Shown: positions 1-43,828 of the stretch, piece by piece | Layout: the number at the start of each line of letters is the position of its first letter | How positions within the stretch are numbered: position 1 is the stretch's first letter | Assembly (NCBI GenBank): GCA_015233405.1 | Contig: JADFXT010000001.1 | Coordinates: forward strand, 18,238 to 82,237 | Direction: 5' to 3' | Source of the DNA: Candidatus Omnitrophota bacterium | GTDB lineage: Bacteria > Omnitrophota > Gorgyraeia > Zapsychrales > Zapsychraceae | Length of the DNA stretch: 64,000 bases | Made by a program: the position numbers and the translations under genes | The notes under the pieces: generated by a model | The model's database searches: none | Seen by the model: only the letters and a program-made list of their open reading frames with translations | Told to the model about the DNA's origin: nothing

Positions 1-2535
1 AAGAAAAAGAAGGTTCCTGTTCCGGAAGGGTTCCTAAAGTCTTTGACCAAAGGAAGCCTTTTGGCGAGCCATGCGAATGAGCAAAGTTCTGTGTCAGGTA
101 TTATTTTAACGACGGACGGTCCGCTTTTAGTGGCTTCCAAGCCGATCTTAACCAGCGAGAGCAAAGGCCCTGTCAAAGGAGCTCTTATCTTTGCTGCGGA
201 CCTTGATTCAGATGAGATTGCGCGTTTAGGGAATATCCTTCGTCTTGATATGGATGTCAAAGGATTTAAAGCGGCTGGCTTGCCTGAGGATTTTGTTGTC
301 GCGCGTAGATCGTTTCTTGACGGTAGGCAGAAAGTTCTCGCTGAATTTGGTAAAGACAAAGTTGCCGGATATAGTGTCTTAAAAGATATTTATGGCAAAT
401 CCGCTTTGATATTAAAAATATCCGAACCCAGAGAGATCTATCAATTTGGCAGCCGCACATTAAATTATTTCGTTTTAGTTCTTCTTCTGGTCGGGCTTCT
501 TTTTGGGGCAGCTGTCTTTTTCCCATTGGAACAGGAGATTATTGCAAGAAAGTGGACAGAGAAGTTGTTGCGCGAGATTGGGGAAAAATATCAGACTTTG
601 ATTGAAACAACCAACACAGGTTATTTGATCCTTGATTCTCAAGGGAAAGTCGTTGATGCCAATAAAGAATATTTAAGATTAATCGGCCGAAAGTCACTTA
701 GCGATGTGTTAGGCAAGAGCGTGACCGATTGGACCGCTCCCTATGATCTGAAACGAAACGCCGACGCTATCAAAGAATGCATGGCAAAGGGATTTATTCG
801 GAATTTGACGATCGATTATTTGGCTCCGGATGGGAAGATCACACCTGTTGAAATTCAGGCGACGGTGGTCAAGACAGAAGGGGATTTTCAAATCGTGTCT
901 TTGTGCCGGGATATTACCATCCGTAAAATGGCCCAGGAAGCCATCCATAAGGCTAAAGAAGAGGCCGAGGCGTCCGCAAAAGCCAAAAGCAGTTTTTTGT
1001 CCAACATGTCTCATGAAATCCGTACTCCGATGAATGCCATTCTGGGATTTGGCGAGCTTCTAAAATCGACACCTGGACTTACGGATAAACAAAAAGGGTA
1101 TGTGGAGATGATCAATTCAAGCGGCCAAGGATTGGTCAAGATCATCGACGACATTCTCGATATTTCCAAAATGGAAGCCGGCCGGATCGTTTTTGAAACG
1201 GTGGAATTTGATTTGCATTATTTATCGGTCAATGTGTTTAAGATGATCGCGGTGCGGCTGAAAGGCAGCAACGTCCATCCTTATGTGGAGATCGCCCAAG
1301 ACGTTCCGATCCTGGTCAAAGGAGACCCGACGAGATTAAGGCAAATCTTGGTCAATCTTTTGGGGAATGCCGCGAAGTTCACGAAGAAAGGCGGAGTTGG
1401 CCTGATCGTAGAATTGGGAGAGAATTCTAAGACGCCGGCCGATGAAATCGCGATCCGCTTTATCGTTAAAGACACCGGCATCGGAATCCCTAAGGATAAA
1501 ATAGAAGAAATATTTCTTCCTTTTACGCAAGCGGACAGTTCGACGACGAGAAAATTTGGCGGCACGGGATTGGGTCTGACCATCGTCAAATCTTTTATCC
1601 AGGCGATGGGCGGACAAATTAATGTCCGTTCCGAGGAGGGGCAAGGAACCGAGTTTATCGTCGATCTTACCTTTAAGAAGGTGGTGAGCCAGGATTCCGC
1701 TAAGGAGAAATTATTAAAGCGAGAAGAATTCATAGGAAAGAAAGTTCTTATCCTTGATGACAACGAGATTGCTCGACGAGTTCTGAATAAAAATTGTCAG
1801 CTCGTAGGCTTAGAGACGCTTGCGATAGAAAGTACGGCCGAAGGCGCTCAAGAAACGCTTGATCGTTTAGCCCGGGAAGGGAAAATCCCGGATGTCCTTT
1901 TATTTGATGTCCTTTTGGAACATGGGGACTCGTTGGGGCTTTTAAAAAACGTCAAGGCCGACGGACGATTCAACCAATGCAAAATCATCGCTGTGACGGC
2001 AGAAGCAAAAATTGGTGACAGAGAAACTGCCAGAAATCTTGGATTTGACGGCTATTTGCCCAAACCGTTCGTGGCCGCGGACTTGGTTCAGGTCTTGAGC
2101 GCTGTTTTGGCAGAACGGAAGGTTGCCGAAGCGGCACTTATTCCGGACGCAGACACTGCTCGAGTGAAAATCCTTCTCGTCGAAGACAGCATCGAAAATG
2201 TGGAACTGATGCTCGAGAATTTTAAGATATTGGGCTGTGATTGTACCTGCGCGTATAACGGGATACAAGCTATCCAGGAACTTCAGACCAATCCTTATGA
2301 TATTTGTTTCATGGATATCCATATGCCTGAAATGAATGGGTTGGAAGCGACGACGATTATTAAACATCAAACTAATATCAAAATCCCGATCATTGCTTTA
2401 ACCGCGGCCGTCTTACCAGAAGAGAAAGACGGAGCATTACAGGCGGGCATGGATGCGTTTCTGACCAAACCGGTTCAATTAGAAACTCTACGGGAAATCA
2501 TCAAAAAATATGCTTTGAAATTTAAGCAATCTTAA
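1..2535 (+). CDS. Hybrid sensor histidine kinase/response regulator (5' partial; periplasmic sensor, TM, PAS, HisKA, HATPase_c, two REC domains)
   Basis: Frame is open to window start (listed TTG at 43 is probably not the true start). H-box [14 protein letters not shown]; G-box GGTGLGL; two receiver domains with D in LLFDV and FMDIHMP; TM segment [18 protein letters not shown]. Confidence 0.85.
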
Positions 2536-2647
2536 TTTTTGGTTTATAGATTTTAACGCTTTAAAAGGGAACGTTTTCCTGTTTCTACTAATACTAAGTG
2601 GCATTTTTGATAAAGATATTTTATACTTAATATAGAAGTAAAAAGTA

Positions 2648-2797
2648 GTGAACCGAAACGGCAAACCCATCGTAAGGTGGGGACGCAAAGTTAAAGGGTC
2701 CAAAAGGAATAGGACAGCCTGACTACCGAAGTCGCTGAATGAGTAAGAAATTTTAAGCCTATTCCTAATGATGTACGGGAATAGGCATTTTTTTTGG
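2648..2797 (+). promoter_or_regulatory. c-di-GMP-I (GEMM) riboswitch aptamer plus intrinsic-terminator expression platform
   Basis: Aptamer has GGCAAACC, P2 hairpin CCCAUC-GUAA-GGUGGG (GNRA loop), conserved GGGACGCAAAG, and 3' ACAGCCUGACUACCGAAG (compare Vc2 GGCAAACC...GGGACGCAAAGCC...UACCGAUGG). Terminator GCCTATTCC(2757-2765)/GGAATAGGC(2778-2786) plus T8; its 5' arm can alternatively pair with GGAATAGG (2706-2713) inside the aptamer. Confidence 0.75.
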
Positions 2798-2834
2798 AAG
2801 CTTATGAAGTAAAAGCGATATAAAGAATGTTTTT

Positions 2835-2931
2835 GTCATCCCCGCAATTTTTAGGCGGGGATCCACAAGGGTTGAAGACATGGTTTCCCGACCTGTCTGC
2901 CGACAGGCAGGCAGAAGATTTCGGGAATGAC
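2835..2931 (+). repeat. MITE/REP-like two-hairpin repeat, copy A
   Basis: GTCATCCCCGCAATTTTTAGGCGGGGATCC hairpin ... GGTTTCCCG..CGGGAATGAC hairpin; near-identical to copy at 7436-7531. Confidence 0.85.
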
Positions 2932-2985
2932 AGCAGTGAAAAAGGAATTATCAGTAGTTTTAGGACGAAAAAGAGGGGGCAATAA

Positions 2986-5900
2986 ATGTTTAGAGGGCAA
3001 GGCACAACAAGAAGTAACATACTAAAGACTATGAGTCTTATAGTCCTCTTTATTTTTATCCCTCAGACTTTATTCGCTCAAATCACTCTTCCAACGCCCG
3101 GGACCATGGTCACGACCAGCGCGTCGTTTGTCCCGCCGATGCTCAAAGGGATGAAGGTTGATTTAAAACAGCCGTTTCAATTTGATTTTATTCTCGATAC
3201 CGGAAATTCTAATTTACAGGACGATGATCTAAAAGATGAATCCAATAAGCTCATCCGCTATTTTCTTTCGTCCTTGACCATCCCGGAAAAAGATTTGTGG
3301 GTCAACTTGTCTCCGTATGAGAAAAACCGTATTATTCCCGACGAGTTCGGCACAACGGAAATGGGCCGCGACTTATTGGCGCAGGATTATATCCTTAAAC
3401 AGATAACAGCTTCGCTCATGTATCCGGAAAACGCAACCGGCAAGGCGTTTTGGCAGAAGGTTTATAAAAAAGCCTATGACCTTTACGGCACGACCGATAT
3501 CCCGACGGACACGTTTAATAAGGTGTGGATCGTTCCGGATAAGGCTGTTGTGTATGAGAATCCGACTCCCAAATCCGGAGAGGCAACGGTATTTGTGGTC
3601 GAGGCGAAGTTGAAGGTGATGCTCGAGGAGGATTATTTTGCGACATCGAATACTGTAGGGGCGGGGTTTCCCCGCCATGAGGATAAAGGGCGCGGGAACC
3701 GCGCCCCTACGGCAATAATCAAAGAGGTCATTATTCCTATTTTGGAAAAAGAAGTCAATGAGGGCGCGAATTTCGCGCAACTGCGTCAGGTGTATTATTC
3801 GCTCATTCTTGCTAAGTGGTATAAGGATAGCCTCAAAGAAAGTATCTTAAATCGCAAATATTCCGACCAGAAAAAGGTTGATGGCGTTGACCTGGCCGGT
3901 AAAAAGGATAAACAAGAAATTTATGAGCAGTATCTTAAGGCGTTTAAGAAGGGCGCGTTTAATTACATCAAAGAGGAATACGATCCAACGACGCAGGCGC
4001 TCATACCCCGCAAATATTTCTCGGGCGGGGCGAATTTTAAAATGGAGAAGCCGATTGAAAAGACAAAATTTTTCCCGAGAGTCATGGGTAATGTGGTCGG
4101 AAAGTTAAAAGAAATCGCAGGTGGTTTTAAAAAATGGATTTTATCGCCGAGGCTCAAAGATGCAGCGATGGTGGTAGCAACCGTTGCAACATTAGTCGTG
4201 CATAATGGAGAAAAAAATGAAGAATTCGATCCTGGTGAGGCTGTAAGACCCGTCGCTGCGGTTGTCGATCAAGCAATGGCTGTAGCGGAAGGAGTTAAGG
4301 CAGCTAAGCCGAATGAAACAGCTTTAAGAGAGGGTTTCAAGTTTCCTTATCTAGGCAAAGCCCCACGGGGTTTTATTATGGGAGGCACCACTAGCAATAC
4401 TCCAAGCGAAAATACTAAAGTCAACAATGCCATGATGAATGTTAAAACAGCAGGAAGCCAAGTTCTAAATGTTTTAGGAAACTTTATTAATCCTGACTAT
4501 GTTCGGCAATTTATTTTCGTAGTGACGGGAAGTTTGTCACTTTTAAGTCCCCTGCCATATGATCCTGGTCCTGAGAAGGACTCAAAGAATTGGAACATGA
4601 AACCTGCTATTACAAGTGACCATGCCATGATGAGCGTTAAGTCGGCCATCGGTGTGCTGGCGATGATGTATATGCTTGCTGGATTGGCTATGCCATCATT
4701 CGCTAATACGCCGGGAAATTTGATTAACCCATCGAGTCTGACTGCGCAAGCGCCCCAAACACGTCAGGCCGCGCCGGTTTCTATTTCCATCGACCAGCTT
4801 AAGAATAAAAATGGCATGATATCGGTCAGGGTCATTCCTCATTCTGAGGTTTATCAAGAATATGAAAAAACACTTTTTGCCTTACAAAGCTGGGCTAGAG
4901 ATAATAATTATCAGGAAGTCCGTGATTTAGGGAATTATATTTTGTTCGTCAATAAAGAGGCCGGGATTTCCATCACATTTGAAACCCGCGAGGGCAATAG
5001 CGATAATCAGAATGCGAACCAACAATTGATCAGGCAGGAAGTCAGAGAATTTCAAACAAAAAATAATCAAGCAACGATTGTTTTAAGTGCCGATGGAACA
5101 ACTTCGGAAATATCAACTGCTGATAATCTTTATTTTGCTTCCGGAATGACGGAAAGCCCGGTTATTGTCATCCCTAATAATGTCGATAGCAAGGTCCTTG
5201 ATAAAATTCGAGCCGCGCATCCGAAGGCGACGATTCTTCAGGCGGATGGTGGCGTCCTGATGGATTTTCTTAAACTTCTTCCGTATATTTCTCAGAATGG
5301 CGCGTTAAGTACGAAAAACACTTCATTCTCCGTCGCTGATACATCCAAATCAGCAAATCCTATGAATGCCGGTACAACCGCAATCCTTTTGGCATTACTG
5401 GGCGGCGGTATTGGCGGAGGAATAAGATTTGTGGGAAGGTCCAAGACGCGGTCAAATAATTCGCAGAGTTTTAATGTCAATTTGAGCGGGAGCCCTTCAA
5501 CCAGTAATCCGGGCATAGCAAAGAAAGCACCGAGATATAATGAGAAAGGCGAAGAGATCATTGGTGACTTCGCCATGATGACGAATAATCAGACAACAAA
5601 AATCCCAGCCGCTACCAGCGCAGGAAGGCTCACGCACCTTCAGAAAAAAATGATTGATGCCCTGGCTAAACAAAGACCGGACAAAGGCCAAGAGGAACCC
5701 ATTTATATCGCCGATATCGGATTCGGAGGAATGTCGACCGTGTTTGATTTAGCAAAAGAACTTAGCAGCCAAGGTTTTAAGAATGTTATTTTCTACGGAA
5801 TGGATTACCGTGCTGAAGTTGTTAAAGGCGCGCAAGATTTTGTATCCAAGCAAGGAAACATCGACGGAATAAGCCGTTTTCAATTTGTTAACGGCAGTTT

Positions 5901-6684
5901 TGAAGCTCTTCAGGACAAGGGGCAGTTTGATCTTATCGTAACGTCGAATACCCTGATGTGGTATGACAATGGGACGGATGCGGTCCAGAAATATCGTAAA
6001 AACATGCAACAAGCCCTTAAAGAAAACGGTATGGCGATCGAAGCAACAGGCGGAGGGGAAAAATTTTCTATTGGATATGTTCAGTGGAATAAAAATAATG
6101 TTACTGAAAGAGGGATCATTGACCCCCAGGGGACAGTATCCAGGAGTAATGCTATGATTCAAGAAGAGAGTGTTGAATCAATACAAAAATCCATTGGGGA
6201 AATTTTTCCTATTTTAAAAGATAGCAATAATTTGTCGGCTATTGCTGCTGTTGTCAAAGAACTTCGCGGAAATAATGTCGAAACTCGTCCAGATAAGCTT
6301 GTTAAGTGGATGAAAACAGCCCTATCTTTAGATTTAAACTGTTTAGAAAGCGAACTAGAGTCTAAGTTAGGGATCCAGATGAATGACGTTAACCTTTTTA
6401 AACTTCTCTATGCCGGGCATACAACAGAAGAACGCCTCAACAAAGACAACGCTCCTTTAGCCAATCCTGGTGGTATTGATTTTAATCCGAACCGTCTAGA
6501 GCTTGATAAACAAGGCGCGCATAATGATTTTGAAATGCCGACCAATCCCGCGGACATGGAAAACATCCAGATCAATGGCCTTGTGCCGGTTATTATGAAA
6601 ATCTCGCCGGTCACGAACCTGCCGCTTCTTCTTGGAGCGAATCAAAATAGCGAAACAACCAGTCCGTTACAAGCAGGTTCTTAG
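2986..6684 (+). CDS. Large secreted protein, paralog 1 (signal peptide; N-domain shared with 14975-19825; internal signal-peptide-like segment; putative class I SAM-methyltransferase-like module; conserved C-terminal GGIDxNP domain)
   Basis: RBS AGAGGGGG before ATG. N-region (from ~aa 60 to ~aa 400) aligns with 14975-19825 (DLWVNL..GRDLLAQDY..KVWIVP.KAVVYENP); the first ~60 aa are not shared. MTase-like IADIGFGGMS...FDLIVTSNTLMW. C-term PGGIDFNPNRLELDKQG. Confidence 0.7.
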   Translation: MFRGQGTTRSNILKTMSLIVLFIFIPQTLFAQITLPTPGTMVTTSASFVPPMLKGMKVDLKQPFQFDFILDTGNSNLQDDDLKDESNKLIRYFLSSLTIPEKDLWVNLSPYEKNRIIPDEFGTTEMGRDLLAQDYILKQITASLMYPENATGKAFWQKVYKKAYDLYGTTDIPTDTFNKVWIVPDKAVVYENPTPKSGEATVFVVEAKLKVMLEEDYFATSNTVGAGFPRHEDKGRGNRAPTAIIKEVIIPILEKEVNEGANFAQLRQVYYSLILAKWYKDSLKESILNRKYSDQKKVDGVDLAGKKDKQEIYEQYLKAFKKGAFNYIKEEYDPTTQALIPRKYFSGGANFKMEKPIEKTKFFPRVMGNVVGKLKEIAGGFKKWILSPRLKDAAMVVATVATLVVHNGEKNEEFDPGEAVRPVAAVVDQAMAVAEGVKAAKPNETALREGFKFPYLGKAPRGFIMGGTTSNTPSENTKVNNAMMNVKTAGSQVLNVLGNFINPDYVRQFIFVVTGSLSLLSPLPYDPGPEKDSKNWNMKPAITSDHAMMSVKSAIGVLAMMYMLAGLAMPSFANTPGNLINPSSLTAQAPQTRQAAPVSISIDQLKNKNGMISVRVIPHSEVYQEYEKTLFALQSWARDNNYQEVRDLGNYILFVNKEAGISITFETREGNSDNQNANQQLIRQEVREFQTKNNQATIVLSADGTTSEISTADNLYFASGMTESPVIVIPNNVDSKVLDKIRAAHPKATILQADGGVLMDFLKLLPYISQNGALSTKNTSFSVADTSKSANPMNAGTTAILLALLGGGIGGGIRFVGRSKTRSNNSQSFNVNLSGSPSTSNPGIAKKAPRYNEKGEEIIGDFAMMTNNQTTKIPAATSAGRLTHLQKKMIDALAKQRPDKGQEEPIYIADIGFGGMSTVFDLAKELSSQGFKNVIFYGMDYRAEVVKGAQDFVSKQGNIDGISRFQFVNGSFEALQDKGQFDLIVTSNTLMWYDNGTDAVQKYRKNMQQALKENGMAIEATGGGEKFSIGYVQWNKNNVTERGIIDPQGTVSRSNAMIQEESVESIQKSIGEIFPILKDSNNLSAIAAVVKELRGNNVETRPDKLVKWMKTALSLDLNCLESELESKLGIQMNDVNLFKLLYAGHTTEERLNKDNAPLANPGGIDFNPNRLELDKQGAHNDFEMPTNPADMENIQINGLVPVIMKISPVTNLPLLLGANQNSETTSPLQAGS
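3655..3710 (+). repeat. GC-rich nested palindromic element inserted in frame within CDS
   Basis: GTAGGGGC[GCGGGGTTTCCCCGC]CATGAGGATAAA[GGGCGCGGGAACCGCGCCC]CTAC; sits at the site homologous to the MITE insertion in the paralog. Confidence 0.6.
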
Positions 6685-7425: not shown

Positions 7426-7435
7426 GTTTTTTGTT

Positions 7436-7531
7436 GTCATCCCCGCAATTTTTAGGCGGGGATCCACAAGATTTGAAAACATGGATTCCCGACCTGTCTG
7501 CCGACAGGCAGGCAAAAGATTTCGGCAATGA
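7436..7531 (+). repeat. MITE/REP-like repeat, copy B
   Basis: GTCATCCCCGCAATTTTTAGGCGGGGATCCACAAG...GGATTCCCGACCTGTCTGCCGACAGGCAGGCAAAAGATTTCGGCAATGAC. Confidence 0.85.
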
Positions 7532-7548
7532 CCTGAAGTGGGGTTGGG

Positions 7549-14974: not shown

Positions 14975-17900
14975 GTGTTGCAATTGTATAGAAATAAAAG
15001 AGTTATAAGATATCAAAAACCTTTCATTTGGGGATTGATTTTCTTTTTTTCGCTTTCCAATATTCCTTTTCCTCAAAAATCTTTCGCTCAAAATATTCCA
15101 GCGGCAGTTAATGTTTTGCCTGCAGCCGCGCAAGCGTTCCAGCCGGTTTTAATCAAGGGAATCAAAGCTTATAAAAATAATCCGCTAAAGTTCGATTTCA
15201 TTTTAGACAAAGGCGAAGCCTTGGGACAAAATGACCCCGCTCGTCCGACGGGAGAGCAAGGGTTACAATTAAAACAAGAAGCCAGCCGACTGATCAAATA
15301 TTTTTTGGCATCTTTGACCGTACCCGAGGAGGATTTGTGGGTGAACTTAAATCCTAAAGAACCGAATAGAATTGTTCCCGGAAAATTTGGCGAGACACAA
15401 ATGGGCCGTGATCTATTGGCGCAGGATTATTTGCTTAAGCAGATTACAAGCGCTTTAATGAATCCGGACGGCGAAACAGGGAAGAAGTTTTGGGAAAGAA
15501 TCTACAGGGAGGTTTATGCAAAGTACGGCTCGACGGACATCCCCGTCGATACGCTCAACAAGGTTTGGATCGTACCAGCAAAGGCCGTTGTGTATGAGAA
15601 TCCGGCGAAAGATGCGGCACAAGCGTCAGCCTTCGTCGTAGAGGCGCGGCTTAAGGTGATGCTGGAGGAAGAATACGAAGCGCTCAAACCGAGCGCGGAG
15701 TCCCGAGCTTCTGCCCCGTTGTCATCCCCGCAATCTTTAAGCGGGGATCCAGGGGTACATAACAAAGCAACTGCTATGGATTCCCGCCTTCGCGGGAATG
15801 ACAAAAAAGGAGATGGGAATGACATGAAGAATGGGCGTGACATGAAGAATGGGAGTGATATAAGTTCTTCAATCATTAAAGAAATCATCATCCCCGAGAT
15901 AGAGAAGGAAGTCAATACCAGCAAAAGTTTTTCGCCGCTGCGCCAGGTTTACAACAGTCTTATCCTTGCCACATGGTATAAGCGGAAACTCAAAGAGAGT
16001 ATTCTGGGGAAGGTTTATTTAAACAAGAACAAAACCATGGGCGTTGATATCGTCGACAAACAAGAAAAACTAAAGATCTATGAGAATTATTTGGCAGCGT
16101 TTAAGAAAGGCACGTGCAATCTCATCAAGGAAGAATATGACCCGGCGACAAAAGAGATTATTCCAAGAAAATATTTCACCGGCGGTGCGCGGATGGCTGT
16201 GGACAAGGCTATGGTGGTAACAAACAAACTGCCTAAGGGATTCATGAAAGCCTTGGGTGTATTATTTCTTTGTTCAAGTGGATTATTTGTTGAGGAAACT
16301 TTTGCGCAAGCGCCGGTAGATTCCCAGCAGGTATCCTTGGCCTCGCAAAAAGAGCATTGGATGAGCCTCGCGAAGACAAATTATGCCGAGGTTTTTCAGC
16401 ATTCTGGGGAATTTATTAATGAACCTTGGGCCATGGACGTTCTTAAGGCCGCAATTTTAGCCACGCCGAACGGCCCATTTTATACGGGTTCCACAGCTGC
16501 TATGGAAAACTTCGATTATTATTTAAAATATGAAAAAGGATGGGAATTCTTTAGATGGATGATGCAAAGATATCCTGAATACGGTTATAGTTATATGGGT
16601 CTGTTTAGAGATAAACCTTATGCTTTAAGAGTGTATGAGCTATTGGCAGAATTGGATCCCGTGGGTATGGTTGATAGGTTGACTTTAAGTGAATATTATG
16701 GCAGGCCTGTTGAAATTGAATCCCCTTACGAAATACCGGAAAACGTTTTGAAACAGATTTTAGCTGGAAGCTCTTCAGATCGGGTCAAGTTGGTCCTTGC
16801 GATCCTACGGCTTTCTATACCACGCGACGAAAAAAAATGGTTGGCACGATTGGCGCCGGATATTTCCAGTGGGAAGTTGACCTTAGAAGAGGCCCAAATC
16901 ATAGTCAAGGATGCGAAAAAATATTTTGAGCGGGCCGTTTCAGTTTATCAATCTCAACCGCCGGAAATAAAAGCGGCCACCTCATGGAGTTTTTTCTATG
17001 AGATAAAGGATTTTTATCTTGGAGAACATTTATCTCCTCTTTATAAGTCTGACAAGAAAAAATTTATGGAAGAAATTCAGGGTCTTGATGCGTACCGGAT
17101 TTATCTTATTTTGGAAAGCTTCAGAGGTAAAGCTTCTTCTAAATTGGAGTCTTTTGATGCGATATTCCCCGTCTTTCTGCAAAAAGTTAAGGCGGAAAAA
17201 TTCAGTATTTCTCAAGCCTCAAGCAGTGCGTATTCTTTGATGGAATTCTTTTCTGATATCAATAGGAACCATCAGGGAAGGAATTTGATGGAGAGTCTTT
17301 CTAAAGAAGAACGGTTGGCCGTTATTCAAAAGATGTCCGAAGCGTTGAATTCCAGGGAGCTTTTCTTTTATTCAATTGATAGAATGAAATACACAATAAC
17401 CATCATGAGTTTTATAGATGATAATTTAGACCTTTTTGACAAGAACGCTCAGGATTATTTAAAACAGGTCAGGGCCAAGCTTCATATTGTTATGGTCGAC
17501 TTGATCAAGAAAGACATCGATGCGCTTGCGGTAGTTGATCAAATAAGGGATCCCGAGTTGATTAATTTGGTCAGAGACATGGCTTTCCAGAAGGTGAAGG
17601 AGCCCCGTTTTAACTCGTCGTTTTTGCTAACCTTTGACCACTATATCAGTCAACCCTGGGGGCAACAGATTCTATTAGAAATCTTGACGAGCGATCCAGC
17701 GAGAGCTCTTAACAATATGGACTTATTAAAGAAAAAATACCCTATTGATTACAATAACCCGCTCATAATGACTTTTAATCAAATCGCGAGTTTGAAAATA
17801 AAACAGTCTGAAAAAGAAAGATTGGCATTGCTTCTTGATGAGCTGGTTAATAAGCGCTTGTCATTAGAAGAAGCGCAGGAATTAATCAAAGATGATTTCT

Positions 17901-19825
17901 TATTGATGCGCCATTTAATCGGAATTTTATCCCGTGATTCTTTAATCGGGCGTGAAGCCATAAAAAGCTTTCTTTCTGATTTTTATCTTAAGTTTGTCCG
18001 GGAAATCAACAAATTACATGAACAGCCGGATTCCGTGCGTTTTAAATCCGTGGAAAAAGCCACGCCGGAGGATTTGTATAAGATCATCGTCTTTGGCGAG
18101 GATGAAGTTTACACGTCGACGTTTAACGGGCTTTTTACCCGGATGATAGAACGTATGAAAGCCCAGGGCATTTCCGGCGAGTCCGGCGAGGAGCTTTTAA
18201 ATTCTGCTGGCCGTTATAAAGTCCGGCCTTTCTTTAGATTGATGGCGAGTTTTAATCGGCTCAATGAATTTCTGGCGACCATGAGCCCTAAGGAGCAGGA
18301 CAATCTTATCGCATATGTTGTGCAGAGTATTGAGAAAGAAAAATATTTCTTAAAAGAAGCTGCTGTTGTGGCGGATATTTTTAGTGTGGTCAAAGACCCG
18401 AAGGTCCTTAAAAAAATTCAGATATTGATCAAGCAGGAATTCCTGCGCGTTCAAAAAGACAAGAATGAGCAAGGCATGGTTCTCTACGGATTGTTAAACG
18501 GCTTGTTTGGTGCTCGGGCTGTTATTGATGGACAATGGTTTAAAGATATGGCGAATCAATTTGGGCTTCCGGATATTTCTGTCTTGTCCCAAAAAACACT
18601 TTTTAATCAGCGGTATCAGAATATTCAACGGCATTTCTTTTATGATGATGAGGACGGTAAGTTATCTTTTGCGGATTTTCTGCAGACTTATCAGAACGAT
18701 TCCAGGAATTGGGAAATCAAAACCTTTCCGACCTATGTCCAGGTTACGTCCAAACACGGGTTTCCGATCGTTATGTATGCCAACCTTCCTGACAGCGTCG
18801 AGAATGGAAATGCCGCTATTGAGGGTGAGTTGTTAATGAAAGGAAACAAACCCCAGGTGATCGTTCATCATGGGCATAGTTATCACGTCGATAAAACCAT
18901 AGAGAAGATCGATTCCGCGGTGACGTTCGTTTATCTGGGCAGTTGTGGTGGATTCGGCCATGTGAGTGAGATTCTTAATTTGTCTCCCAATGCACAAATT
19001 TTTTCCACGAAAGGGACGGGAACGGCCGTTGTCAACGGGCCTTTATTTAAAATAATTAATGACGAGATCCGGCAAAAAGGGATGGTAGATTGGCGAAGTT
19101 TGTGGGTCAAGGCTGAACACAAATTGGGTAATGTTTCGGAATTGCGCAACTACATGTCGCCGGACCGGAACTTAAGCGTCCTATTTTTAAAAGCCTACAA
19201 CAAGAAATTGGAAGAGTTGAAGAATAAATCTTCCATGCCAGCGGATACGCTGCAGCATTCGTCTGTGAACAATCCGGATAGACAGTGGTTTGAAAGAATA
19301 CAACAAAGACGTAATGAATTGAACGCGTCTCTGCAAAATGTTTTGGCAACTAATGGTGATGTCCTGGTCGGACAAGCACGGGAACGTATTTTAAGCAAAG
19401 AGGACGCTCAGCGCCTTAAGAAGGCCCAGCGTCAAGTGGATTACATTCTGGCGGAGCAAGTTGAGCTTAACAGGCTTTTGACTGAGGCACGAAATAATAT
19501 CATTCAACAAAGACAAGCGCCACAGCAGGAAGAAAATCAATTTATGTATGCTTTGGCCCGTCGGGTTTCTCAAGAAGCCGGGAATAATGTTTTTGCTTTA
19601 GAGCACACAGATGCCGCTATGATTACACAAAAAACTCCGGGTGGGATTGATCTTAATCCGCAAAAGATGAATCTTGATATTCAAGGCAAAGGCGAGGATT
19701 TTACAATCCCAGACGGATTTGAGTATCTTTTAAAGGAAGATATCGCAGGTTTTAGCCCTGTCATTTTTGATATTACTCCGATATCTCCTGATAAAATCAC
19801 AGGAATTTTACAGAATTTTCACTAA
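14975..19825 (+). CDS. Large secreted protein, paralog 2 (signal peptide; shared N-domain; in-frame MITE insertion; internal signal-peptide-like segment; C-terminal GGIDxNP domain)
   Basis: RBS AGAGGGGGAG; N-terminal ~400 aa collinear with 2986-6684; C-term PGGIDLNPQKMNLDIQGKGEDF. Confidence 0.7.
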   Translation: MLQLYRNKRVIRYQKPFIWGLIFFFSLSNIPFPQKSFAQNIPAAVNVLPAAAQAFQPVLIKGIKAYKNNPLKFDFILDKGEALGQNDPARPTGEQGLQLKQEASRLIKYFLASLTVPEEDLWVNLNPKEPNRIVPGKFGETQMGRDLLAQDYLLKQITSALMNPDGETGKKFWERIYREVYAKYGSTDIPVDTLNKVWIVPAKAVVYENPAKDAAQASAFVVEARLKVMLEEEYEALKPSAESRASAPLSSPQSLSGDPGVHNKATAMDSRLRGNDKKGDGNDMKNGRDMKNGSDISSSIIKEIIIPEIEKEVNTSKSFSPLRQVYNSLILATWYKRKLKESILGKVYLNKNKTMGVDIVDKQEKLKIYENYLAAFKKGTCNLIKEEYDPATKEIIPRKYFTGGARMAVDKAMVVTNKLPKGFMKALGVLFLCSSGLFVEETFAQAPVDSQQVSLASQKEHWMSLAKTNYAEVFQHSGEFINEPWAMDVLKAAILATPNGPFYTGSTAAMENFDYYLKYEKGWEFFRWMMQRYPEYGYSYMGLFRDKPYALRVYELLAELDPVGMVDRLTLSEYYGRPVEIESPYEIPENVLKQILAGSSSDRVKLVLAILRLSIPRDEKKWLARLAPDISSGKLTLEEAQIIVKDAKKYFERAVSVYQSQPPEIKAATSWSFFYEIKDFYLGEHLSPLYKSDKKKFMEEIQGLDAYRIYLILESFRGKASSKLESFDAIFPVFLQKVKAEKFSISQASSSAYSLMEFFSDINRNHQGRNLMESLSKEERLAVIQKMSEALNSRELFFYSIDRMKYTITIMSFIDDNLDLFDKNAQDYLKQVRAKLHIVMVDLIKKDIDALAVVDQIRDPELINLVRDMAFQKVKEPRFNSSFLLTFDHYISQPWGQQILLEILTSDPARALNNMDLLKKKYPIDYNNPLIMTFNQIASLKIKQSEKERLALLLDELVNKRLSLEEAQELIKDDFLLMRHLIGILSRDSLIGREAIKSFLSDFYLKFVREINKLHEQPDSVRFKSVEKATPEDLYKIIVFGEDEVYTSTFNGLFTRMIERMKAQGISGESGEELLNSAGRYKVRPFFRLMASFNRLNEFLATMSPKEQDNLIAYVVQSIEKEKYFLKEAAVVADIFSVVKDPKVLKKIQILIKQEFLRVQKDKNEQGMVLYGLLNGLFGARAVIDGQWFKDMANQFGLPDISVLSQKTLFNQRYQNIQRHFFYDDEDGKLSFADFLQTYQNDSRNWEIKTFPTYVQVTSKHGFPIVMYANLPDSVENGNAAIEGELLMKGNKPQVIVHHGHSYHVDKTIEKIDSAVTFVYLGSCGGFGHVSEILNLSPNAQIFSTKGTGTAVVNGPLFKIINDEIRQKGMVDWRSLWVKAEHKLGNVSELRNYMSPDRNLSVLFLKAYNKKLEELKNKSSMPADTLQHSSVNNPDRQWFERIQQRRNELNASLQNVLATNGDVLVGQARERILSKEDAQRLKKAQRQVDYILAEQVELNRLLTEARNNIIQQRQAPQQEENQFMYALARRVSQEAGNNVFALEHTDAAMITQKTPGGIDLNPQKMNLDIQGKGEDFTIPDGFEYLLKEDIAGFSPVIFDITPISPDKITGILQNFH
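15721..15868 (+). repeat. MITE copy E inserted in frame in CDS, plus 18-bp tandem repeats derived from its 3' end
   Basis: GTCATCCCCGCAATCTTTAAGCGGGGATCC...GGATTCCCGCCTTCGCGGGAATGAC, then GGGAATGACATGAAGAAT / GGGCGTGACATGAAGAAT / GGGAGTGATATAAGT (translated GNDMKN-GRDMKN-GSDIS). Confidence 0.8.
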
Positions 19826-20029: not shown

Positions 20030-21712
20030 ATGCAAATAGGACTATCGTTAGTTAAAAACGGGTTAATTTCCCTAGAGCAATTGGATTTGATTTTAGCAGA
20101 GCAGCAAAAAACCCAGGAGCGCATTGGCGATATCGCCATCAGGCTCGGTTTCGTTAACCCTCATCAACTCGCTCCTTTCATCGCCGAGCATTTCAGCCTT
20201 CCTTTCGTAGAACTCAAAAAAAATTATAAAGCCATCAAGCCCGAGATCATTAGCCTGATCCCGGAAGATTTGGCTTATCGTTTTGTCGTCATTCCTCTGG
20301 AGATGGAAAATAATGCCTTGGTCCTCGCCGTCGCGGATCCTTTAAATATTGTCGCCGATGACACGCTCAAATTAAAGACGGGATTGAAGATCAAGCACAA
20401 GGTGGCCTCCGCCGAGGATATTATTGAAGCCATTGATTATTGTTACCATCAACTTCCACGGCTTAAAGAGCATATCAATCATTTTATTGAACTTGAGCCG
20501 CAATCGGCGGTGGAGAAAGATTTTGAGAAATTGCGCATTGAAGCCAATGACCCGCCGGTCGTCAAATATGTCCATCATCTGATCGTCCAGGCCGTTAACA
20601 GCGATGCGAGCGACATCCATATTCAGCCTAAACAAGATAAGGTCCGGTTGTGTTTCCGCGTCGACGGGATTTTGTATGATTTCGATCCGCCGCCGAAGAG
20701 CATGCTCGCGGGCATCATCACGCGTATTAAGATTTTGGCGGGGCTCGATATCGCCGAACGGCGCTTGCCGCAGGATGGACGTTTTAAGATGGTCGTCGGA
20801 GCGGTGGAAATCGATGTGCGAACCTCGTGTTTTCCGACGATTTACGGCGAGAATATTGTTATGAGAATTTTAAATACCTCCAGCCCTTTATTGGGATTGG
20901 AACAGCTAGGATTTTCTCAAGAGGACGTTGTGAAATTCCGGGAATTGATTCACAGACCGTATGGTTTGATCCTCGTCACCGGTCCGACGGGAAGTGGAAA
21001 GACAACAACCCTTTATACCGCTTTAAATGAAATTAAATCCTCGGATAAAAATATGATCACACTTGAGGACCCCGTCGAGTATAGGTTGCCGTTCATTCAG
21101 CAATCCCAGATGAATTCTGTCATAGGATTTGATTTTGCCCGAGGATTACGGTCGGTCTTACGCCAGGACCCGGATGTCATCATGGTCGGAGAAATCCGTG
21201 ACAAAGAAACGGCCGAGATCGCTATTCATGCGTCGTTGACGGGACACTTGGTTTTCTCTACACTGCACACCAATGATGCCACGGGGGCGACGGTGCGCCT
21301 GATCAATATGGGCGTGGAGCCGTTTTTGATCACCTCGTCATTGATCGGCGTTTTGGCCCAGAGGTTGATCCGTTCCATCTGCCATAATTGCCGTAAAGAA
21401 TATTTGGTCAACGAGGAATCGCTGGAGAGATTATCTTTGGATGAAAAGCTGCATAAGTTTTTCAAGGGCCAAGGATGCTCGAATTGTTTAAACAGCGGAT
21501 ATCGAGGACGGTCGGCCATTTTTGAATTGCTTACGGTCAACGATGCGGTCCGTAGCCTGATCCTCAAACGTTCGTCGAGTGAAGAGATCAAGCGTCAGGC
21601 CCAGGCCGACGGAATGAAGACGCTGCGCGAAAGTGGTATTGAGAAAATCAAGATGGGGATAACCACGGTCAGCGAAGTTTTACGTGTCACCCAGGAAGCG
21701 GAGAGCATTTAG
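20030..21712 (+). CDS. pilB: Type IV pilus/T2SS assembly ATPase (PilB/GspE family) with N-terminal MshEN-type domain
   Basis: Walker A GPTGSGKTTT; Asp box; His box; tetracysteine CHNC..CSNC; N-term QIGLSLVKNGLISLEQLDLILAEQ matches MshEN c-di-GMP motif. Confidence 0.9.
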   Translation: MQIGLSLVKNGLISLEQLDLILAEQQKTQERIGDIAIRLGFVNPHQLAPFIAEHFSLPFVELKKNYKAIKPEIISLIPEDLAYRFVVIPLEMENNALVLAVADPLNIVADDTLKLKTGLKIKHKVASAEDIIEAIDYCYHQLPRLKEHINHFIELEPQSAVEKDFEKLRIEANDPPVVKYVHHLIVQAVNSDASDIHIQPKQDKVRLCFRVDGILYDFDPPPKSMLAGIITRIKILAGLDIAERRLPQDGRFKMVVGAVEIDVRTSCFPTIYGENIVMRILNTSSPLLGLEQLGFSQEDVVKFRELIHRPYGLILVTGPTGSGKTTTLYTALNEIKSSDKNMITLEDPVEYRLPFIQQSQMNSVIGFDFARGLRSVLRQDPDVIMVGEIRDKETAEIAIHASLTGHLVFSTLHTNDATGATVRLINMGVEPFLITSSLIGVLAQRLIRSICHNCRKEYLVNEESLERLSLDEKLHKFFKGQGCSNCLNSGYRGRSAIFELLTVNDAVRSLILKRSSSEEIKRQAQADGMKTLRESGIEKIKMGITTVSEVLRVTQEAESI

Positions 21713-24032: not shown

Positions 24033-24194
24033 ATATCGAAATCCGAAACAAATCTTAAATCCCAAGCATCAAACATTTTAGATTTAGAATTTAAGTGGTT
24101 TTGTTTCGGATTTCGATATTCGGATTTCGAGCTTTTTTACTCCTGGATTTCGATATTCGGATTTCGAGTTTTTTTACTCCTGGATTTCGACATT
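24033..24194 (+). terminator. Complex repeat/terminator-like region downstream of the pilin gene
   Basis: 20-bp perfect inverted repeat ATATCGAAATCCGAAACAAA (24033-24052) / TTTGTTTCGGATTTCGATAT (24100-24119); two tandem 37-bp units CGGATTTCGAGCTTTTTTACTCCTGGATTTCGATATT (24121-24157, 24158-24194), each with a T-run. Confidence 0.5.
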
Positions 24195-36519: not shown

Positions 36520-38304
36520 GTGGGGAAATTCATAAAAATCATAGATGAAAAGACTTTCCATCCCATGGCTTCCTTAAAAGACCGTCTACAACAGATACTC
36601 CTTCAGCATAAACTTGTTTCGCCGGAAAATTTGGACAAGGCGTTAAAACAGCAGGAACAGGAAGGCGGCGAACTTAGTAAGATCCTTATTAAGTTGAACC
36701 TTATCGACGAAGAAACTTTGATCCCGGTCCTTTCCGAGGCCATGGAAGTCCCGCTGATTCACATCTCACGGCTTCATATTGACCCAGAAGTCGTCAAGAT
36801 TGTTCCTCAAGATGTTGCGCAGAAATATCAGGTGATCCCTGTTTCCCTTTTAGGCGATCATTTGACCGTGGCGATGGCAGATCCTTTAAATATTTTTGCC
36901 GTGGATAATCTTAAAGCGTTAACAGGTTATACGATCATTCCGGTGATTGGCAGGGAAGAGGAGATCCGTTTGGCCATTAGCCGGCATTATGGTATTGAGG
37001 ATACAGGAACAGCGACGGGGAAATTCAAGGAAATCATCAAAGATATTCAGGACACAGGAGATATTGAACTCGTCAAGGAAGCCGGCCATCATGACCCTAA
37101 GGCCGTCGAGGAACTTGCAGACGATGCCCCAATTATCAAATTAACGGATACCATTATTCAACAAGCCGCATTTGCCAAGGCCAGCGATGTGTTTATTGAG
37201 CCGATGGAAAAGACCCTGCGGATCCGTTACAGAATCGACGGGATGATCCGAGAGATCGACCGGATGGCCAAATTCCTGCACGCGCCGATCATTTCCCGCA
37301 TCAAGGTCATTTCCAATTTAGATATTTCAGAACACCGCCTTCCTCAAGATGGACGGTTTAAAACGATCATCTCCGGGAAAATCGAGGTGGATTTTCGTGT
37401 TTCTGTTTTGCCGACGCCGTTTGGGGAAAAAATTGTTTTACGCGTCTTAGACCAGCAGGGCACGGTGCTGGATGTGGATAACTTGGGGTTTGACCCGGAA
37501 TCCTTACGCCGGCTCAAGGAGTGTTCTTTTCGGCCGCATGGGATGATTCTTACCTGTGGCCCGACGGGAAGCGGGAAGACGACGACGCTGTATTCTATCC
37601 TTAAATATATTGATTCACCCGAGAAAAATATCGTGACCGTCGAAGACCCGGTGGAATATCAATTGAAAGGGGCCAATCAGGTCAATGTCCGTCCGGCGAT
37701 CGGGTTGACCTTTCCGGCGTGTTTGAGGTCCATTTTACGTCAGGATCCCAATGTCATTTTGATCGGAGAAATCCGGGATACGGAAACATTGGATATTGCC
37801 GTTAAGGCTGCGCTAACCGGGCATCTGGTTTTAAGTTCGCTGCATACGACCACGGCCGCAGGGTCTGTGGTGCGTATGATGAACATGGGCATTGAACCTT
37901 TTTTGATATGCTCGTCGGTGTTGGCGGTTGTGGCTCAGCGGCTTTTACGCCGGCTTTGTCCGCATTGCAAAGAATACTACACGCTTTCTAAGGAGATTGT
38001 CGCCAAAGTGGGGTTGGCAAAAATTGTTTCGCAGGATACGGTGGTGTTATTTAGAGCTAAAGGATGCCCGCAATGTTTTAATACCGGATATCGAGGGCGC
38101 GTTGGGATCACAGAGATCATGGTCTTGTCTATTCGTCTTAAAGAATTAATTCTTCAGAAAGTTGGAGAAGGCAAGATCAAACACGTCGCCCGTCAGGAAG
38201 GAATGAAAACCATGCGGGAGGACGGTTTAAAAAAGGCGATGGAAGGGTTGACGTCGTTAGAGGAAGTTCTCCGTGTCACCGCTCCCGACGAAGAGGAATC
38301 ATGA
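36520..38304 (+). CDS. PilB/GspE-family ATPase 2 with MshEN-type N-domain
   Basis: GPTGSGKTTT; CPHC..CPQC; N-term RLQQILLQHKLVSPENLDKALKQQ. Confidence 0.9.
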   Translation: MGKFIKIIDEKTFHPMASLKDRLQQILLQHKLVSPENLDKALKQQEQEGGELSKILIKLNLIDEETLIPVLSEAMEVPLIHISRLHIDPEVVKIVPQDVAQKYQVIPVSLLGDHLTVAMADPLNIFAVDNLKALTGYTIIPVIGREEEIRLAISRHYGIEDTGTATGKFKEIIKDIQDTGDIELVKEAGHHDPKAVEELADDAPIIKLTDTIIQQAAFAKASDVFIEPMEKTLRIRYRIDGMIREIDRMAKFLHAPIISRIKVISNLDISEHRLPQDGRFKTIISGKIEVDFRVSVLPTPFGEKIVLRVLDQQGTVLDVDNLGFDPESLRRLKECSFRPHGMILTCGPTGSGKTTTLYSILKYIDSPEKNIVTVEDPVEYQLKGANQVNVRPAIGLTFPACLRSILRQDPNVILIGEIRDTETLDIAVKAALTGHLVLSSLHTTTAAGSVVRMMNMGIEPFLICSSVLAVVAQRLLRRLCPHCKEYYTLSKEIVAKVGLAKIVSQDTVVLFRAKGCPQCFNTGYRGRVGITEIMVLSIRLKELILQKVGEGKIKHVARQEGMKTMREDGLKKAMEGLTSLEEVLRVTAPDEEES

Positions 38305-42816: not shown

Positions 42817-42944
42817 ACTGGGCGAGTTGTTTTAAAGCTGCCTTTAGTAAAAAATCCTCAGATGATTCCCGTTGATGCTTGCCCGGTTTGCAAATTATTT
42901 TTTAATGTGCTACACTTAAATTGAAAGCTGAAATTTGCTTTTGT

Positions 42945-43035
42945 GAAAAAAGGTAAACCATTCGAAAGGATGGGACACAAAACTAAAGGGCCCTCAAGCC
43001 GTTAAAAGCTCGGGCAGCCAGTTGCCACATAAGGA
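42945..43035 (+). promoter_or_regulatory. GEMM-like (c-di-GMP-I/cyclic-dinucleotide riboswitch-like) element with variant core
   Basis: GGUAAACC + P2 CCAUUC-GAAA-GGAUGG (identical to Vc2 P2) + GGGACACAAAAC in place of GGGACGCAAAGC; 3' GGGCAGCCAGUUGCC. Confidence 0.45.
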
Positions 43036-43088: not shown

Positions 43089-43117
43089 CCGTTCCCGTTT
43101 GTGGAATGGGTTTTTTA
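43089..43117 (+). terminator. Intrinsic terminator (candidate expression platform of the GEMM-like element)
   Basis: CCCGTTCC-CGTTTGT-GGAATGGG + TTTTTT. Confidence 0.5.
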
Positions 43118-43408: not shown

Positions 43409-43828
43409 ATGAGAATCAGAAATCAGAAAGGTTTTACGCTCGTCGAAATTATGATCGTCGTTGCGATCATAGCCCTGTTGGCCGCTATTGCAATCCCGAA
43501 CTTGTTAAGAGCCAAGATGTCCGCTAATGAAGCATTAGCACAGAGCACGCTTCGCGCTATGTCAACGGCAGCAGAAACTTTTGCCTCCGCACATAACGGT
43601 ACTTATCCTACAGCTGGTCAGTTAACAACCGGCGGGCCAAAGTATATTGAAGTCGATTATTGCGATGCTGGTGGAAATCCTCGTTCTGGATATAATTATA
43701 CTTGTCCGACCCAGACGACTACCGGGTATAGTTTTGTTGCTACGCCGGCGTCTGCATCGACGGGTTCAAAGACATTCACCATTGTTACAGGTGGCGTATT
43801 GTCAAACGTGGATTTTGTAGCTCAATAA
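43409..43828 (+). CDS. Type IV pilin / GspG-like pseudopilin
   Basis: QKGFTLVEIMIVVAIIALLAAIAIPNLLRAKMSANEA; RBS GAGGAGG. Confidence 0.85.
   Translation: MRIRNQKGFTLVEIMIVVAIIALLAAIAIPNLLRAKMSANEALAQSTLRAMSTAAETFASAHNGTYPTAGQLTTGGPKYIEVDYCDAGGNPRSGYNYTCPTQTTTGYSFVATPASASTGSKTFTIVTGGVLSNVDFVAQ

Follow-up and report, generated by a model that had tools for sequence, protein, structure and literature searches.

A c-di-GMP-I class aptamer with a terminator platform and predicted OFF logic ahead of a secreted-protein gene of an Omnitrophota bacterium

We analyzed a 64,000-nt stretch of the genome of a Candidatus Omnitrophota bacterium (NCBI GenBank assembly GCA_015233405.1, contig JADFXT010000001.1, positions 18,238 to 82,237 of the forward strand), hereafter called the window, whose own numbering is used throughout. 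A 450-nt gap between an open reading frame (ORF) at 43-2535 and another at 2986-6684 houses a riboswitch region. Its aptamer belongs to the cyclic di-GMP-I (c-di-GMP-I, or GEMM) class and is followed by an intrinsic terminator, and we consider it reasonably probable, if well short of certain, that the two form a transcriptional OFF riboswitch controlling the gene of a 1232-aa secreted protein. The aptamer is composed of the following parts.

2648-2735, forward strand: c-di-GMP-I class aptamer of a short-P3 subtype with three helices (RF03167 match, covariation and our own covariance model R1)
2648-2655 with 2727-2735, forward strand: helix P1, all standard pairs
G2661-C2686 and C2662-G2685, forward strand: junction pairs, standard
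2666-2671 with 2676-2681, forward strand: helix P2 with loop GUAA, standard pairs
2689-2701 with 2712-2724, forward strand: helix P3 with loop 2702-2711, standard pairs
2660, forward strand: G equivalent to the ligand contact G20 of Vc2 (position 10 of the RF03167 alignment)
2687, forward strand: A equivalent to A47 of Vc2 (RF03167 consensus GACGCGAAG vs. GACGCAAAG in the window)
2726, forward strand: C equivalent to the ligand contact C92 of Vc2 (position 80 of the RF03167 alignment)

A preceding reading of the same letters, made without database searches (the sequence-only reading), had described a canonical GEMM-I riboswitch in the 450-nt leader from its hallmark motifs and a 6-bp P2 with a GUAA loop. 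All of these were found in place: GGCAAACC at 2660-2667, the P2 hairpin at 2666-2681 (CCCAUC/GGUGGG with the GNRA loop GUAA), GGGACGCAAAG at 2680-2690 and AGCCUGACUACCGAAG at 2716-2731. The window was scanned against Rfam 15 (4227 families), with clan competition displaying the best member of a clan alone. Results showed a match of 2651-2731 to RF03167 (c-di-GMP-I-GGC, clan CL00126) at 62.3 bits, with a gathering score of 59 and an E value of 2.7e-12 for the whole window and all families. When the search was confined to 2540-2990, a further clan family also cleared its gathering score there, and two gave matches at E up to 10. Our own model R1, built from the alignment of relatives described below, gave 72.8 bits. 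The two models agree with the earlier identification of a c-di-GMP-I aptamer. A hit to RF01051 had been expected at 2600-2800; a significant match to the clan was obtained there, with RF03167 and not RF01051 as the top family. Likewise, the word canonical holds for the binding-site nucleotides G2660, A2687 and C2726, but not for the type 1 fold, as P3 is short and lacks the 11-nt receptor.

P1 is formed by G2648-C2735, U2649-G2734, G2650-C2733, A2652-U2732, C2653-G2731, C2654-G2728 and G2655-C2727, while P3 pairs in three blocks (2689-2692/2721-2724, 2695-2697/2718-2720 and 2698-2701/2712-2715). The bases for an inter-helix Watson-Crick pair, which we take to be C44-G83 in Vc2 numbering, are present as C2684 (in GACGC) and G2717 (in the AG bulge of ACAGCC). 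This C-G pair is conserved among GEMM riboswitches, and G20, A47 and C92 contact the ligand in Vc2 (PMC4744006). The structural reference of the class, RF01051/Vc2, thus shares with the window aptamer a three-helix junction, the cores GGCAAAC, GGGACGCAAAG and ACAGCC...ACCGAA, the three contact equivalents, the inter-helix C-G bases, the GNRA loop of P2 and a position in the 5′ leader. The window aptamer differs in its short P3 with a 10-nt loop and a two-A bulge, in the lack of the 11-nt tetraloop receptor and in its best Rfam family. The GUAA tetraloop of P2 is present, and P3 is without the UAAG/UAUG receptor motif of the RF01051 consensus. P3 is likewise short in 120 sampled metagenome relatives, which were gathered with a search pattern that itself demanded a short P3.

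Covariation was scored on the P1/P2/P3 structure in an alignment of the window aptamer with 67 diverse metagenome relatives (68 sequences). Standard pairs occupied 91.6% of the alignment cells vs. 76.7% in shuffled data, and changes on both sides of a pair were observed in 249 cells vs. 70 in shuffles. The covariation score amounted to 0.411 vs. 0.134 for shuffled data, and none of 500 shuffles reached the observed value. As a control, the 3′ partners were slid by 1-3 columns, which reduced pairing to just 30-45%. Both-side changes were seen in four inner P2 pairs, five P1 pairs and five P3 pairs, and most of the covarying columns had been left free by the search pattern that gathered the relatives. 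P1, P2 and P3 strongly covary, and the three helices are supported; the sequence-only reading had named missing covariation as a finding that would speak against it.

The same alignment bears on whether the element is a decaying relic that has lost ligand binding, which we regard as quite unlikely. A weak and interrupted P1, an extra bulged A in P3 and an Rfam score near the gathering score would fit such decay. However, every core nucleotide that is invariant in the 68 relatives is found in the window aptamer. The two-A bulge of P3 recurs in two further loci (L066 and L145, described below), which marks the extra A as a lineage trait, and the whole cassette has been kept between genomes, with P2 showing compensatory changes.

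Taken at face value, the best Rfam match (62.3 bits, with 59 as gathering score) could place the aptamer in the c-di-GMP-I-GGC variant class proper, which has altered binding-site nucleotides. This variant was reportedly defined by Weinberg and colleagues in 2017 (in PNAS), and its name is said to stand for G, G and C at positions 20, 47 and 92; to our knowledge, its ligand has not been established. Among the three contact positions, the RF03167 and RF01051 consensus sequences differ solely in the base after ACGC, which is G in RF03167 (GACGCGAAG) and A in both RF01051 and the window (GACGCAAAG). Membership in the GGC variant, which needs G at the A47-equivalent, was rejected on account of A2687. 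In metagenome contigs, a pattern scan that accepted either purine at this position and required a short P3 returned A in 120 of 120 aptamers. All eight A-carrying aptamers scored (L081, L084, L087, L096, L127, L136, L145 and L172) were, like the window, best on RF03167, at 63-79 bits. We therefore consider true GGC membership very improbable.

Since P1 and a short P3 are built into the RF03167 model, it outscores RF01051 on any aptamer of such an architecture, whichever base occupies the diagnostic position. With A in that position, the GGC label is an artefact of competition between models, which goes by the short P3 and P1 and not by the diagnostic base. What the window shares with the RF03167 variant is the overall architecture, the model length and the best covariance-model score, whereas the consensus G at the A47-equivalent is replaced by A in the window and in the 120 sampled metagenome relatives. 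The cyclic AMP-GMP (c-AMP-GMP, GEMM-Ib) riboswitches of Geobacter and relatives have the same fold and belong to the same clan, and presumably carry A at the G20-equivalent; the window has G2660, and membership in this class, which needs that A, was rejected as well. These variants are known to differ by a key binding-pocket nucleotide (PMC9481103). With the contacts G, A and C, the window aptamer is an ordinary c-di-GMP-I member with a short P3 and a terminator platform, and would be expected to bind c-di-GMP. For annotation this is a pitfall, as RF03167 captures ordinary short-P3 aptamers with A47, and the diagnostic base should be checked before a new ligand is inferred.

The following elements surround the aptamer and make up its predicted expression platform.

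2598-2627, forward strand: promoter-like site with -35 GTGGCA (2598-2603), 18-nt spacer and -10 TATACT (2622-2627), from a consensus scan
2705-2713, forward strand: predicted antiterminator 5′ strand AGGAAUAGG, made up of P3 loop nucleotides and the two that begin the P3 3′ strand; it duplicates the terminator 3′ arm
2757-2795, forward strand: intrinsic terminator with a 10-bp stem (2757-2766/2777-2786), 10-nt loop, A and U8 (2788-2795), from folding at -13.7 kcal/mol
2834-2932: repeat resembling a miniature inverted-repeat transposable element (MITE), with inverted termini TGTCATYCCCG, between terminator and ribosome-binding site; a 91% identical copy exists
2973-2979, forward strand: Shine-Dalgarno-like GAGGGGG, 6 nt before the ATG at 2986, read from the sequence
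2986-6684, forward strand: putative regulated gene, 1232 aa, from homology and domain searches

Transcription from the promoter-like site is predicted to start near 2634-2636. The terminator hairpin (arms GCCTATTCCT/GGGAATAGGC at 2757-2786) has 5 G-C pairs in its stem; a simple terminator scanner passed over 2757-2795, its loop limit being 8 nt vs. the 10-nt loop found here. The sequence-only reading had noted a stretch of the aptamer repeated in the 3′ arm of the terminator, and the 8-mer GGAATAGG indeed occurs twice, at 2706-2713 within P3 and at 2778-2785 in the 3′ arm. On the other side of the hairpin, A2705-G2713 and C2758-U2766 of the 5′ arm can form nine Watson-Crick pairs with a duplex energy of -14.2 kcal/mol. 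When the aptamer was dinucleotide-shuffled 20000 times, 0.11% of the shuffled sequences had a 9-nt complement to the 5′ arm (P ~0.001).

Folding of transcripts of increasing length showed the order in which these pairings are favored. In the nascent transcript up to 2756, the minimum-energy fold retains P2 and part of P3. With the 5′ arm made and the 3′ arm not (2636-2767), the antiterminator is the minimum-energy fold, at -33.1 kcal/mol vs. -23.1 kcal/mol when the aptamer is forced. Once the transcript reaches 2787, the minimum-energy fold contains the terminator and amounts to -39.6 kcal/mol, the aptamer together with the terminator to -37.7 kcal/mol and the forced antiterminator to -34.8 kcal/mol. 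Neither arm of the terminator is part of the aptamer, and hence neither can be sequestered by its ligand-bound form, which excludes a simple ON design; the 5′ arm has its sole strong competitor within the aptamer, so that OFF logic is predicted. Transcription would start at about 2635 from the promoter at 2598-2627, and the nascent RNA would fold into the aptamer (2648-2735). With no ligand, 2705-2713 would pair with 2758-2766 as soon as the latter is made, and the resulting antiterminator would let the polymerase read through the MITE-like insert into the gene of the 1232-aa protein. With c-di-GMP bound, P3 would be locked and the 5′ arm freed, so that 2757-2766 could pair with 2777-2786 and transcription would end at the U8 run.

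The opposite direction (ON), or control of translation or RNA stability instead of termination, seems unlikely to us. Platforms of class I are diverse and some are ON, with Bc2 of B. thuringiensis contrasted with the OFF switches of C. difficile (PMC6366702), and a recognisable terminator was found in only 14 of 104 metagenome relatives. Yet, in addition to the placement of the terminator arms, the ribosome-binding site is ~240 nt away from the aptamer with the repeat in between, which makes direct sequestration implausible. The predicted OFF logic, together with the placing of an intrinsic terminator behind a class I aptamer, is shared with Cd1 (Cdi-1-3) of the flgB operon of Clostridioides difficile. 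For Cd1, c-di-GMP promotes termination, and the class I switches of C. difficile are uniformly OFF (PMC6366702). The window element differs from Cd1 in phylum and in regulated function, with an antiterminator located in the P3 loop and an Omnitrophota-specific secreted protein as the gene product.

Model R1 was run over the window and over 80 loci (L001-L080) that encode paralogs of the downstream protein. Beyond the two sites in the window (the second of which is described below), it matched L066 and L013 only. The L066 match, at 1040-1290 on the minus strand in a different Omnitrophota metagenome-assembled genome, is part of a cassette homologous to window 2590-2800. Comparison with window 2590-2830 revealed that the blocks TGGCA and ATATTTTATACTT are kept, and these coincide with the promoter-like site at 2598-2627. 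P2 is changed on both sides (CCCAUC/GGUGGG in the window vs. ACCGGU/ACCGGU in L066), while the terminator GCCTATTCCT...GGAATAGGC with T8 is common to the two. The P3 region of L066 is still able to pair with the 5′ arm, at -14.3 kcal/mol. The coupling of aptamer and terminator claimed by the sequence-only reading is thus backed by the folding of nascent transcripts and by the conservation of the cassette in L066. In the L066 aptamer, GGCGC replaces GACGC and AUAGCC replaces ACAGCC. The cassette is directed away from the paralog of that locus and precedes, ~30 nt after the terminator, the gene of a 77-aa protein with a signal-peptide-like N-terminus.

Thus, 78 of the 80 paralog loci have no aptamer and L066 has one on the opposite strand only; strict and relaxed aptamer patterns searched upstream of the 80 loci gave no match. 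With the window counted, a same-strand riboswitch was found in 2 of 81 family loci. The riboswitch as a family-wide feature of these proteins was rejected, R1 having given one same-strand (L013) and one divergent (L066) case. L013 carries an aptamer with an enlarged P3, terminator-like hairpins and, after ~250 nt, the same-strand paralog.

Between the terminator and the 1232-aa gene lies the repeat at 2834-2932 (~99 nt), which the sequence-only reading had already recognized as a MITE copy separating riboswitch and ribosome-binding site. It is 91% identical to 7435-7533, with identity dropping abruptly at both ends, and its termini are TGTCATCCCCG and CGGGAATGACA. In the window, 18 instances of the terminal motif TGTCATYCCCG were counted vs. 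2.15 expected. Being short, non-coding and multi-copy, with inverted termini and discrete boundaries, the repeat has the properties of MITEs; between the two copies compared, no clear target-site duplication was visible, and an origin like that of repetitive extragenic palindromes or bacterial interspersed mosaic elements (REP/BIME) may be considered. A further copy (15716-15814) is located inside the coding sequence of a second paralog of the 1232-aa protein in the window (14975-19825). There it continues the reading frame (SSPQSLSGDPGVHN...) and lengthens a variable loop by ~49 residues, with the ORF unbroken.

The repeat and the scarcity of aptamers among paralog loci raise the possibility, in our view a rather small one, that the aptamer works but is not coupled to the 1232-aa gene, most transcripts being ended at the terminator whether or not ligand is bound. 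The cassette would then yield a short riboswitch RNA or mark the end of read-through from the kinase gene at 43-2535, and the large gene would have its promoter in or after the MITE-like insert. Such uncoupling would fit the mobile-looking repeat before the ribosome-binding site, the service of the same cassette to a different gene (that of the 77-aa protein) in L066, and the 78 paralog loci without an aptamer together with the opposite orientation in L066. The c-di-GMP-I riboswitch Bc1, moreover, has been described as locked in a terminated state (PMC11218506). On the other hand, the stretch from the terminator to the start of the 1232-aa gene contains no ORF of any length. Aptamer core, antiterminator complement and terminator have all remained intact, which argues for continuing selection, and L013 has the same order of aptamer, terminator and ~250-nt spacer before a same-strand paralog. 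The small ORFs of the leader are mechanical only, with a ribosome-binding site in none.

Several observations weigh against an OFF riboswitch of the c-di-GMP-I class that controls the 1232-aa gene. P1 is interrupted by the bulged A2651 and contains one U-G pair. The RF03167 match exceeds the gathering score by 3 bits, and the RF01051 score is masked by clan competition. The antiterminator uses the P3 loop, whereas several terminator-bearing relatives use the 3′ strand of P1, and the pairing of P3 with the 5′ arm in L066 is imperfect, with two bulges. Nearest-neighbour energies leave out tertiary energy, ligand energy and kinetics. The MITE-like insert could hold its own promoter, bypassing the switch. 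Finally, no GGDEF motif was found in six frames of the 64-kb window.

The position of the antiterminator distinguishes the window from most of the terminator-bearing relatives. A simple terminator within 160 nt was present in just 14 of 104 metagenome relatives, and several terminator-bearing ones pair its 5′ arm with the P1 3′ strand CCGAAGG. Since the surveyed terminator-bearing relatives mostly use this strand, the P3-loop antiterminator design is specific to the window lineage. It is compact, specified in full and accessible to tests in vitro.

Other arrangements were encountered among the metagenome relatives. L145 (minus strand) has tandem aptamers at 1205-1282 and 1576-1652, with exosortase-like and glycosyltransferase-like neighbours as judged from translations alone. 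Two terminator-like hairpins follow the first aptamer; the second has the core changes GGGGGCGCAAAG and CUGCUGAAAG and directly abuts a ribosome-binding site and ATG. In L087 (1252-1329, minus strand; Omnitrophota metagenome contig Ga0206863), the P1 3′ strand overlaps the AUG and there is no separate terminator, which suggests translational control; the downstream gene product has a signal-peptide-like N-terminus.

The product of the putatively regulated gene has a signal-peptide-like N-terminus, an Omnitrophota-specific N-terminal domain of ~350 aa (the N-domain), an S-adenosylmethionine-dependent (SAM) methyltransferase domain at aa 908-1018 and a conserved tail of ~60 aa, GGIDFN...GLVPVI (in the family, GGIDFN...GLVPVI..I.PV). 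Over 99% of its length, it is 100% identical to an NCBI protein from 'Candidatus Omnitrophica bacterium'. The N-domain is 50-60% identical to more than 4800 proteins, and the family comprises 589 confirmed stretches in representative genomes of GTDB, with many copies per genome. Middle regions are variable, with matches to methyltransferase, nucleoside-monophosphate kinase, HEAT, Nudix, HATPase_c, M48 peptidase and PP2C domains, among others. The N-domain has no family in Pfam or NCBIfam and no sequence relative in PDB; its AlphaFold2 model reached a predicted local distance difference test (pLDDT) value of only 57.7, with no Foldseek match in PDB below E 0.4. This is a very large, Omnitrophota-specific and uncharacterised family. 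The second N-domain paralog of the window, at 14975-19825, is 47% identical over the N-domain and has no riboswitch.

The wider neighbourhood contains two features that belong to the context of the riboswitch.

43-2535, forward strand: upstream hybrid histidine kinase with CHASE4-PAS-HisKA-HATPase_c and receiver matches in two stretches (Pfam)
42942-43029: second c-di-GMP-I riboswitch aptamer (RF01051, 65 bits)

The upstream ORF is the hybrid sensor kinase that the sequence-only reading had recognized; it is probably cut by the start of the window and is context only for the riboswitch. That reading had also described the downstream locus as full of MshEN c-di-GMP receptors, and this was upheld in part. 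Three T2SSE ATPases with a Pfam MshEN domain are encoded, at 20030, 36520 and 38308. As reportedly given by Wang and colleagues in 2016, the 24-residue motif of MshEN reads RLGxx(L/V/I)(L/V/I)xxG(L/V/I)(L/V/I)xxxxLxxxLxxQ, and an exact search with this motif gave no match in six frames of the 64-kb window. Only the ATPase at 20030-21712 is near this c-di-GMP-binding consensus, with the N-terminal tandem copies QIGLSLVKNGLISLEQLDLILAEQ and then RIGDIAIRLGFVNPHQLAPFIAEH, while those at 36520 and 38308 are without the conserved glycines of the motif.

The second riboswitch precedes a type IV pilin-like gene (43409-43828, with an N_methyl motif) by ~380 nt. Its terminator at ~43089-43117 consists of CCCGTTCC/GGAATGGG followed by a T6 run. 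When the transcript to 43100 was folded, the P2 3′ strand GGAUGGGA paired with the terminator 5′ arm, and on this model the second riboswitch would follow the same OFF logic as that at 2648. Elsewhere in the window, between pilin-like genes, a 37-nt unit GGATTTCGATATTCGGATTTCGAGCTTTTTTACTCCT is tandemly duplicated at 24108-24181 (97% identity). A single c-di-GMP-governed surface programme, as the sequence-only reading had imagined, remains a conjecture with some support from the riboswitch ahead of the pilin gene. We also put forward, as a tentative and rather doubtful idea, that a portable cassette of promoter, aptamer and terminator is shared among Omnitrophota genomes, where it serves different secreted-protein genes, and that both riboswitches of the window, ahead of the N-domain exoprotein and the type IV pilin, are OFF.

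The present analysis adds to the sequence-only reading the predicted OFF direction, an explanation of the Rfam label, the conservation of the cassette across genomes and the rarity of the riboswitch in the family as a whole. A literature search on "Omnitrophota" and "riboswitch" returned nothing on c-di-GMP riboswitch control in this phylum. The results place such control, as first pointers, in an uncultured phylum, and their value is practical rather than conceptual. By linking c-di-GMP to one secreted protein of a large family and to a pilin gene, they offer starting points for experiments on the surface biology of these bacteria. If the shared OFF cassette proved true, pilus and exoprotein genes would be silenced at high c-di-GMP, contrary to the usual rule by which high levels promote attachment, and this would offer a first handle on lifestyle switching in ultra-small, possibly host-dependent bacteria.

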